From positions 24,180 to 88,179 of the forward strand of contig DHHZ01000127.1 of NCBI GenBank assembly GCA_002403515.1: a DNA stretch of 64,000 nucleotides. Direction: 5' to 3'. Source of the DNA: Legionellales bacterium UBA4759 (lineage in GTDB: Bacteria; Pseudomonadota; Gammaproteobacteria; Legionellales; Legionellaceae). How positions within the stretch are numbered: the stretch's first letter is position 1; every line of letters starts with the position of its first letter. The position numbers are program-made. Below, in pieces: positions 51,401-54,400 of this stretch.

Positions 51401-54400
51401 GGTGAGGGAATTTTCTAAATTCAACCAGATAAATGTTTCGTATCATTTGACTTAAAAAATGAATACCAAGCATTTCATTGAGTAAGAGATTTTCTGGTTG
51501 TTTTAAATTGGTTTTGAATTGTTGGAAATCAAGGCGAAGACGATTAATAAAAATTTCATGTTCGTCTGCAGGTAGTAAACCATGGGTTAAAACCTGGTTT
51601 TGAATAATGGAAATTTTCTCTTCAAAATAACTAAGCAGCATTTCTAGATTTTTAAATCTTGATTGAGGTGGGGGTGTTTCACCTTCAGGTAAATTGTCTA
51701 ATTTATCGGTATTGTCACAGATTGAATCCAATTTATTGTGAATCTCCTGAATTTCTTGGTAGACCAATTCGGCATCACGTTCAATTAATCCGGCTTGATT
51801 AATAGCCAGTTCCATAATTTCCACATCATCGCGGACTCGAAGCTCCAATTGCTCTTTATTTTTTTTAATGATTTGTGCAATGGTTCTTATTTCATAAGCA
51901 GGCATTTCTGAACTGACAGAGGCTGCCAGTGATTGTGATTGTCTCAGTTGGTCTACGGTAAGTTTTGCTCCTTCAGACTTGTAACACAGGTATAAGGTTT
52001 TGGCCTTGTGATACAAACCGGATAAATCTTTTTCTTCAGTGATTTGACACAAATATCTTAAAAAATTAAATTGTCTTGCAAGCATGGCTCTTTTATAAAA
52101 TGTACCAACTCGAGTTTTAAGCTCTTCGTCATCACTATCAATCACATACTCGATGGATTGAAAGATTTCACCTAAAAGGTCTTTGGTTTTCACTAAATCA
52201 GTTAGCCATGCTCGCATTTCCTCAATGAGTGCGCGGTATTGTATTTGTTGAAGCCAAGCCCTCGGAATTTGTCGCTGTTGATAATCTTCAAAACGTTTTT
52301 GGTTCCTATCCCATGTTTCTCTTAAAGCAGCAAAATCAGGGAGGGGAGAAATAGAAGAGTGTACTGGCAAGGGAGGGTCTTTTAAAATCGATTTTTCAAT
52401 AAAATCCAAATAAAAATGTGTTTTGGCAAGACAGATTTTAATGTCATTAAAAAGTTTGACATGATCATAAGTTTCTTGAGGTTCTAGGAAAACTTGTTGA
52501 ATGGTTTGAATTTCCCGCATGATTAAGGTGTATTGTTCGGCGATATTTATTCTTGAAATGTATTGCGCATCATATTGTTCAATGGCCTGCCCCATATCCA
52601 CCATTTTTTGAATTTCGCGCAAATGATCATTGATTTGACTTTTTAACATGCGACTTTTTCGATAATTCAGTTGACTTTCTCTTTCCAAAAGCTTGATGCC
52701 AAAGTTTAAATGTGGAAAATCTTCAATAGTTTGTAATAATATTTGAAAATTCATTTCATAAACTTTTTGAGCTCTTTGGATACTTTGTAGAGGGGTTTGT
52801 AAGTCCTTGAGTTTTAATAAACTGGTTTGATAAATCCACGTTTCTTTCACTGGTAAATCGCGTGATGCATAAATGGCTAAATTGCCTTCTTCGATGAGTC
52901 GACGAATTTTTTGAAAATATTTTTGGTCGTAAGTTTTTGCATAATTCATACAATACATTATTTCTTGGGCGGAAAATAATGTGTAATAAGCTGCCTGGGC
53001 TGCTTTTTGTTTCGCAAGCACTGGATTGTCTGTGTGTTTAAAAACCTCGGTTAGTGTTTGAAATGCCGTCCCTTCAATTTCTTCGGCATCTTCGAGTTTG
53101 GTTTGAAGATAATGATGGTTGGCCGATTGCAGCATACCCAACATGGATGCGGATTGGTTGTAGGCTTCAATATCATCACTATCCCTAACATTTCTTTGAG
53201 AAGTGAAGATGTCTTGTAATTTTCTTTGCCATTGAAGTTGTCTTTTGGGGGTCCAAGGACACTCATGCTTTTCTTCTGGATATCGAATCTCTGAGGCTAT
53301 TAAAAGAGGCCCAGGTTCACTGTCTAATTGATAGCAGACTTGATGGGTAAAAAAATCTGGTCGTAAACGTTTTAAAGCTTCACGGTGAAGATCTTCTAAA
53401 ATAATATCCGTGCTACGTGTTGCAAAGTTGACTCCCAAATGCGCGGTTGTTTCACCTTGCCCCAGTAAAATAATGGGATATTTCACATTCCCATCCAAGG
53501 CAATATATTGGCGATGGGATGGCAAAATACCCGAATGAATACGGCTTTCAGTATTTAATATGAGTGCGTGATTAAGCGCGCCTATGATGGTGTAGGCTTG
53601 ATAGTTTTTAATTTGGCCAGTAATGGGGTCGACATAGTTTTCATAACCACCTAAAAGTGCTCGAACAGCGGGACCACAGCGTCTGACAATTTGATTGGCA
53701 GCATCATCAAGTTCTAAAGTTTTTCGAGTACCAATGCGGCTTAATTTTGTTCTAAAATTCGAAAAATCTATGGTTGGCCAATCGCGATAATTCAGAGTAT
53801 CGGTCGATGGGGGCGTTGCAGCATTTAAAAGTGCTCTGACCACATCATTTTTATGTTCCCTAAGTCTTGCGATGGCATAGGATTGCATGGCGTGGACAAA
53901 AAAATTAGCCAGTTTGATATAACCATCTTCACCTGCGGCCAATCGAAAAATTAAAAATTGGTAACGAAAGCTTAAAATACTTGCCACACGTCGAGCGATT
54001 TTTTCATAATCTTGCGCGGGAATATAAAAAAGCATTTGAGCTGAAAATAGTCTTTCTTCGGCTTCAGCTTGTTGCCTTTTTTGCTCTACACTATCGTATA
54101 TAGCATTGCTTGCTCCAGCTGCAGCAGAAACGACCAATTGTCCAGCTGAACCTATCCCCATGGGAGCTTGGGCAATTGCTTCACTGGTGGCTTGACTTAT
54201 TTGTCTTAGTTGTTCTTTTTTTTGTTGGTTAAAAAACTTAAATATTCGGCTCTTTTTTCAGCAAGTTTTTCACTTTCTTCTTGGGCATTAAGCATCGCAA
54301 CAATGCCTTTTTGAATAACAGACTCACATTCATCGCACTTATGCCGAATCATACGATTAATCGCTTGTCGGTCTTCAGTGGTCATTCTCACCAAGAGTTT

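Follow-up and report, generated by a model that had tools for sequence, protein, structure and literature searches.

The heptamer A_AAA_AAG, the slippery sequence of the dnaX and IS3-type recoding cassettes, is among the most shift-prone motifs in Escherichia coli (PMC4066793) and is present in 68 genes of that species (PMC9307594). Heptamers of the V_VVA_AAG type that lack stimulators shift there at about 0.3%, and at about 3.7% at most in the best 3′ context (PMC4066793). RNA polymerase can slip as well, its insertions increasing exponentially with the length of an A/T run (PMC5574713), and rescue of an insertion or deletion (indel) by slippage has precedents (PMC5009743, PMC4256274). Here we analyze an A_AAA_AAG heptamer in a 64,000-nucleotide stretch of contig DHHZ01000127.1 from Legionellales bacterium UBA4759 (hereafter the window, whose numbering we use throughout), where the motif lies at the end of a 72-residue open reading frame (ORF) and the -1 frame runs open into a 1213-residue ORF. 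We conclude, with a probability of roughly 0.8, that these two ORFs are one gene of about 1300 codons, from a freshwater Legionella-like bacterium, that a real deletion has broken; the allele is either a split gene or a pseudogene at an early stage. It is this deletion history that produced the canonical heptamer and the open -1 frame, neither of which evolved as a signal for recoding. The first-pass annotation of this DNA offered three readings, namely programmed frameshifting, phase variation and sequencing error, and one or more direct tests contradict each of them.

Read and recomputed on the minus strand, the 3′ end of the 72-residue ORF is TTT TTA ACC AAC AAA AAA AAG AAC AAC TAA. A codon begins at position 54223, which puts the heptamer (54221-54215, with its G at 54215) in the X_XXY_YYZ phase. 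A ribosome that slips by -1 reads on as GAA CAA CTA AGA CAA ATA AGT CAA GCC ACC AGT GAA GCA ATT GCC CAA GCT CCC ATG GGG, and this frame contains the ATG at 54161 and the whole 1213-residue ORF. The -1 frame is closed upstream by a TGA at 54260-54258 and contains no ATG, GTG or TTG before 54161. The ATG at 54161 has no Shine-Dalgarno (SD)-like sequence before it, whereas an AAGGA precedes the start of the 72-residue ORF, which agrees with orthologue N-termini (MKNATEKSKLL / MKNTLEKSKLL). In these respects the first-pass annotation was correct: the heptamer is in the zero frame of the small ORF, the -1 frame is open without a start codon of its own, and the large ORF lacks an SD sequence. The ATG at 54161 encodes the conserved Met of an APMG motif, kept in about 40 of 48 family members, and is not an evolved start. 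From 5′ to 3′ along the coding strand, the features are as follows, with P0032 denoting the intact protein of a conspecific.

54431 to 54435, minus strand: Shine-Dalgarno-like AAGGA, 7-11 nucleotides 5′ of the ancestral start ATG (54424-54422).
54206 to 54424, minus strand: 72-residue ORF, an N-terminal fragment of a family protein; residues 1-66 are ancestral and are followed by six out-of-frame residues and TAA.
54224 to 54232, minus strand: deletion scar TTA ACC AAC, located by comparing the window frames with the P0032 junction (FLTTKNQQKKEQLRQ) and with the DNA of relatives.
54216 to 54223, minus strand: run of eight adenines (A8), read CAA AAA AAA G (Gln-Lys-Lys) in intact relatives and AAA AAA AAG in the window.
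54215 to 54221, minus strand: A_AAA_AAG heptamer in the zero frame of the truncated ORF, the only plausible site of -1 ribosomal slippage.
54206 to 54208, minus strand: TAA stop of the shifted frame, two codons past the heptamer.
54162 to 54214, minus strand: stretch read only after a shift (with the G at 54215, EQLRQISQATSEAIAQAP), ancestral coding sequence whose protein is identical to that of P0032.
50520 to 54161, minus strand: 1213-residue ORF, equivalent to residues 89-1301 of the ancestral protein, with no SD sequence.

Comparison with relatives indicates one gene and not two. Searching with the virtual -1 fusion of both ORFs (1301 residues) returned 13 orthologue-like proteins of 1273-1327 residues and 34-52% identity, with both parts in one ORF, as well as more distant family members of 1400-1600 residues. 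Among 1.84 billion representatives, searched exhaustively with a profile, only 43 proteins belonged to the family. An N-terminal module, RMTxEDRQxINRxxxHK...KGxVAMLNAQEE, starts every full-length member and is fused to the remainder, and the gene is a single ORF in 48 of 48 full-length relatives, including P0032, which is 97% identical. The first-pass annotation was right to link the two ORFs and to derive one long protein from them by a -1 shift at the A run. The named matches are from Legionellaceae or from Legionellales metagenome-assembled genomes. In loci L001 and L002, as in the window, the gene lies between a SulP-carbonic anhydrase gene and proS, a shared neighborhood that identifies these copies as orthologues. 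Neither ORF matches a Pfam or NCBIfam entry (for the 72-residue ORF, none at E ≤ 0.1). The family is an orphan and uncharacterized, and all 43 representatives are Legionellales-like.

The closest of these comparisons locates the lesion. P0032, found within the 90%-identity cluster of the 1213-residue protein, comes from a Lake Mendota co-assembly (IMG 3300059473, on a contig of 16,112 bp) and is a single ORF of 1304 residues, about 97% identical and in the same gene neighborhood; the virtual fusion has 1301 residues and needs a -1 shift. At the junction P0032 reads AEYLSFLTTKNQQKKEQLRQISQATSEAIAQAPMGIG, the upstream frame of the window reads AEYLSFLTNKKKNN and then stops, and its downstream frame, read back from the ATG, reads ...FFNQQKKEQLRQISQATSEAIAQAPMGIG. 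Together, the upstream and downstream readings pin the frame switch to 54232-54215. The upstream frame agrees with relatives through ACC (Thr) and the downstream frame from AAC (Asn, 54230-54228), the two matching frames overlapping in AACCA (54230-54226), and the conserved NQQKK, whose codons take in all of the A8 run, is read in the downstream frame. In relatives with available DNA, the A8 run is in frame as CGT CAA AAA AAA GAA (L002), AAA CAA AAA AAA GCT (L003) or AAT CAA CAA AAA AAA GAA (L018). When 49 family members are aligned, a junction gap of three residues is unique to the window. These comparisons show that the window lacks three codons plus one nucleotide just upstream of the A8 run, and that the run itself is ancestral coding sequence, normally read in frame as Gln-Lys-Lys. 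We infer that the lesion was a 10-nucleotide deletion between AACCA repeats, with the exact bases taken from the P0032 protein and the DNA of relatives: P0032-like codons TTA ACC ACn AAA AAC CAA CAA AAA AAA GAA would have become TTA ACC AAC AAA AAA AAG AA.

The same alignments bear on phase variation, in which A8 would be a contingency tract whose slipped-strand mispairing turns the gene on or off. One more A, giving A9, would put the two parts back in frame, and A8 runs are mutable. At the assembly level, however, the tract is A8 in the window and the three other split assemblies (L014, L015 and L016) and also in the intact-tract relatives L002, L003 and L018, and what separates the window from the intact allele is found 5′ of the run. 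Moreover, A/T runs of eight or more are commonplace, with 40 in the 64-kilobase (kb) window. We consider phase variation very unlikely.

The junction is also reproducible, which bears on the proposal that a homopolymer sequencing or assembly error conceals a true A9 and hence a single ORF. Three further assemblies, made from other samples, share the identical junction with its A8: L014 (Logan SRR7638781), L015 (JGI 3300030036) and L016 (Logan SRR1047955). By single-nucleotide polymorphisms (SNPs), L014 and L015 differ from the window at two and six other positions, respectively, and therefore represent separate haplotypes; overall, split haplotypes have 0-6 differences in 5 kb. Recurrence in further assemblies excludes a one-off homopolymer error. 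Furthermore, the difference from relatives is three codons plus one nucleotide and not one A, and even A9 would leave the gene three codons shorter than every relative; the deletion is therefore real regardless of the length of the run. We give the error explanation almost no credence. In a search for an intact conspecific allele, the sole return of the metagenome scan (L017) ends at residue 66, and no conspecific was found in the genome-contig scan. All six SNPs that separate L015 from the window fall within 181 nucleotides (53562-53742, minus strand), and two of them give the P0032 residues (F and S); this cluster may mark a patch of sequence that the split and intact lineages exchanged by recombination.

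If the heptamer were an evolved -1 frameshift site of the dnaX or IS3 type, setting a fixed ratio of 72-residue and 1301-residue proteins, its canonical sequence, its phase and the open -1 frame would all be expected, but the other elements of such a site are missing. The upstream SD sequence and downstream hairpin that had been suggested as signals to look for are not present at stimulatory distance: we found no SD-like sequence about 10-14 nucleotides upstream of the heptamer and no hairpin or pseudoknot 5-9 nucleotides downstream. The 141 nucleotides around the heptamer fold no better than shuffled sequences (z = -0.41). The sole marginal stem (z = -1.85; CCCAUGGGG) encloses the ATG at 54161 and begins 27 nucleotides downstream of the heptamer, and is therefore too distant to act as a -1 stimulator. 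Nor is the two-frame layout conserved. The A8 run of relatives is read in another phase (CAA AAA AAA G), the genes of all 48 full-length relatives, the 97%-identical conspecific among them, are single ORFs, and a recent deletion explains the arrangement in the window. Programmed frameshifting is highly improbable on this evidence. The A_AAA_AAG motif by itself is not beyond chance, because the window (36.6% G+C) holds, besides its 40 A/T runs of at least eight, four other in-phase A_AAA_AAG heptamers within long ORFs. Chance does not account for the open -1 frame, since this is the frame in which the ancestral single gene was read. Across the long ORFs of the window, the counts of AAAAAAG by codon phase are 18, 11 and 4, with the shift-prone A_AAA_AAG phase rarest; this skew, in counts uncorrected for codon usage, is consistent with avoidance.

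An AlphaFold model of residues 1-430, made with 49 sequences, has a predicted local distance difference test score (pLDDT) of 83.7 and a predicted template modeling score (pTM) of 0.79; an earlier model from 14 sequences (pLDDT 55.6) was too poor for use. In the predicted fold, a helix at residues 16-85, the loop APMGIG (86-91) and a return helix at 92-134 form an antiparallel helical hairpin. The break at residue 66 is predicted to fall inside helix 1 of this hairpin, the stretch read only after a shift (54162-54214) is modeled as belonging to the helix at 16-85 and to the APMGIG loop, and Met89, the apparent start of the large ORF, is the conserved Met of that loop motif. The ribbon-helix-helix label first given to the 72-residue ORF is not confirmed: besides the lack of any Pfam or NCBIfam match, the monomer model has one continuous helix at 16-85 paired with 92-134, not a strand and two helices. 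Foldseek found no relative of model residues 1-430 in the PDB at E ≤ 0.001 (best E = 0.75), and a PDB sequence search with the N-terminal profile returned noise only. A candidate papain-like or transglutaminase-like Cys-His-Asp triad (C250, H286 and D311) was rejected, as conservation of the three residues across the wider family is incomplete.

The modeled hairpin invites the idea of gene fission, in which the 72-residue helix would pair non-covalently with a large protein started at Met89 by termination-reinitiation. Met89 begins exactly at the predicted APMGIG loop, and the stop of the small ORF lies 42 nucleotides upstream of the ATG at 54161. That ATG, however, has no SD sequence and sits within the predicted local stem described above, no other family member is split at the junction, and the small ORF is predicted to end inside helix 1, at residue 66 of 85. 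We regard fission as unlikely.

Apart from the junction, the split gene gives no indication of decay. Residues 1-66 and the 18-codon linker are identical at the protein level in the window and P0032, and there is no second lesion or further stop in the 1213 codons of the large ORF. When the 40 differences between the window and P0032 were polarized with five outgroups, eight amino-acid changes were assigned to the window and 11 to P0032. Several points weigh against our conclusion that the gene has simply been broken. First, the split lineage has neither an excess of amino-acid changes (8 versus 11) nor a second lesion, and this undecayed state fits a very recent event and continued selection equally well. 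Second, the split allele is present in at least three haplotypes and four datasets and therefore has not been rapidly purged. Finally, the 10-nucleotide size and the AACCA microhomology are deductions from the P0032 protein and the DNA of relatives. With respect to the first point, the split haplotypes are nearly clonal, and a very recent event thus explains this undecayed state as well as continued selection does.

These observations lend some weight to leaky recoding, in which ribosomal -1 slippage, insertion of an A by RNA polymerase or both keep the gene functional and so explain persistence of the allele. A -1 ribosomal slip and the addition of one A by RNA polymerase give the same 1301-residue product (...FLTNKKKEQLRQ...). 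The geometry is exactly as required, with an in-phase heptamer two codons ahead of the stop and a -1 frame that is the ancestral one; the split lineage carries no further lesions or substitution excess; and the allele recurs in several samples and haplotypes. The highly shift-prone character of A_AAA_AAG in E. coli (PMC4066793), the steep rise of RNA polymerase insertions with A/T run length (PMC5574713) and the precedents for indel rescue (PMC5009743, PMC4256274) point the same way. Without stimulators, however, E. coli rates of about 0.3%, or about 3.7% at most (PMC4066793), are the relevant ones, and neither an upstream SD sequence nor a hairpin at 5-9 nucleotides is present here. Any rescue would probably amount to a small fraction of translation. 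In addition, with so few differences among the split haplotypes, persistence may reflect youth only, and no transfer RNA (tRNA) gene was found in the 64-kb window to show the tRNA-Lys set of the organism. We view leaky recoding as possible but improbable. More doubtful again is the fuller proposal that the deletion allele survives in a widespread freshwater lineage through a slippage-supplied trickle of functional full-length protein, the deletion having by chance set the ancestral A8 run in the slippery phase shortly ahead of the new stop.

Returning to the reading we prefer, a single gene split by deletion, we propose the following course of events. An ancestral gene of about 1300 codons, with an in-frame A8 (Gln-Lys-Lys) and located between the SulP-carbonic anhydrase gene and proS, lost three codons plus one nucleotide just upstream of A8, probably ...ACn AAA AAC C.... 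The most likely route would be replication slippage between the two AACCA repeats, deleting 10 nucleotides. The loss threw the N-terminal 66 codons out of frame with the remainder, and it alone placed A8 in the A_AAA_AAG phase, with the new stop following two codons later. Translation would then mostly end with the 72-residue product. Occasional ribosomes may slip by -1 on A_AAA_AAG, and A9 may be present in part of the transcripts; the outcome in both cases would be a 1301-residue protein that lacks three residues of the long helix. Some ribosomes may instead reinitiate at Met89.

Elsewhere, the family gene has decayed repeatedly and independently. The closest relative with DNA (L018; 65% identity, ENA ERZ28575597) has its own one-nucleotide deletion, CTCCCAG to CTCCAG. 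The resulting frameshift, at L018:2950-2990 (HGLLPENEHDFF), leaves ORFs of 995 and 319 residues and could be either a real mutation or an assembly error. A pseudogene at L019:4664-5553, reached by a search with the N-terminal 150 residues that gave few matches, is a decayed remnant that retains only residues 2-295, with residues 296-1301 absent; it has an in-frame TGA (CGA to TGA at ATRSAPLG) within residues 2-261, followed by a frameshift. At L020:3094-3687, the syntenic site directly downstream of the SulP-carbonic anhydrase gene, residues 1-83 are lost and there are at least two frameshifts, and this remnant is annotated as small ORFs (P0066 and P0062).

Two neighboring genes complete the locus. 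The fused gene for a SulP-family transporter and a beta-carbonic anhydrase (745 residues; 55577-57814, minus strand) adjoins it in L001, L002, L015 and L020. A 315-residue ORF (54606-55553, plus strand) with a weak match to the aminoglycoside-phosphotransferase/kinase fold (PF01636, E = 3e-5) lies between the SulP-carbonic anhydrase gene and the split gene in the window and its conspecifics, is absent from the L001 and L002 loci by tblastn, and looks like a lineage-specific insertion.

For annotation, the 72-residue and 1213-residue ORFs should be treated as one frameshifted gene, and not as a regulator with its effector or as a recoding site. More broadly, where an AT-rich genome has a Lys-Lys run in frame, an indel next to the run can produce a canonical heptamer with an open -1 frame, a pattern of false positives worth knowing when genomes are scanned for recoding. 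If leaky rescue were true, the locus would be a case of compensatory recoding on a bacterial chromosome caught at its origin and a natural starting point for compensatory frameshifting, and the allele might serve as a hypomorphic down-switch.

Compared with dnaX and IS3 cassettes, the locus has the same A_AAA_AAG in the zero frame but has neither an upstream SD sequence nor a stem-loop or pseudoknot at 5-9 nucleotides, and its layout is not conserved in relatives. The dnaX shift truncates its protein, whereas a shift in the window gene would extend the product. The locus also resembles the G-run mutants of herpes simplex virus thymidine kinase, the poly(A) tracts of endosymbionts and tssM of Citrobacter rodentium (PMC5009743, PMC4256274), in that an indel lies at or near a homopolymer and low-level rescue by slippage is possible. 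Unlike those systems, the run here is only A8 and no stimulator accompanies it. The best-documented cases of transcriptional slippage involve longer runs. The closest likeness is to split genes and incipient pseudogenes: two pieces cover single-ORF orthologues collinearly, a short indel lies in low-complexity sequence, and nonsense, frameshift and deletion decay occurs in L018, L019 and L020. Unlike typical frameshifted genes, however, this one has its stop just two codons past a highly slippery heptamer in the frame-restoring phase, so that leakage from this allele may exceed what is usual for a frameshift.

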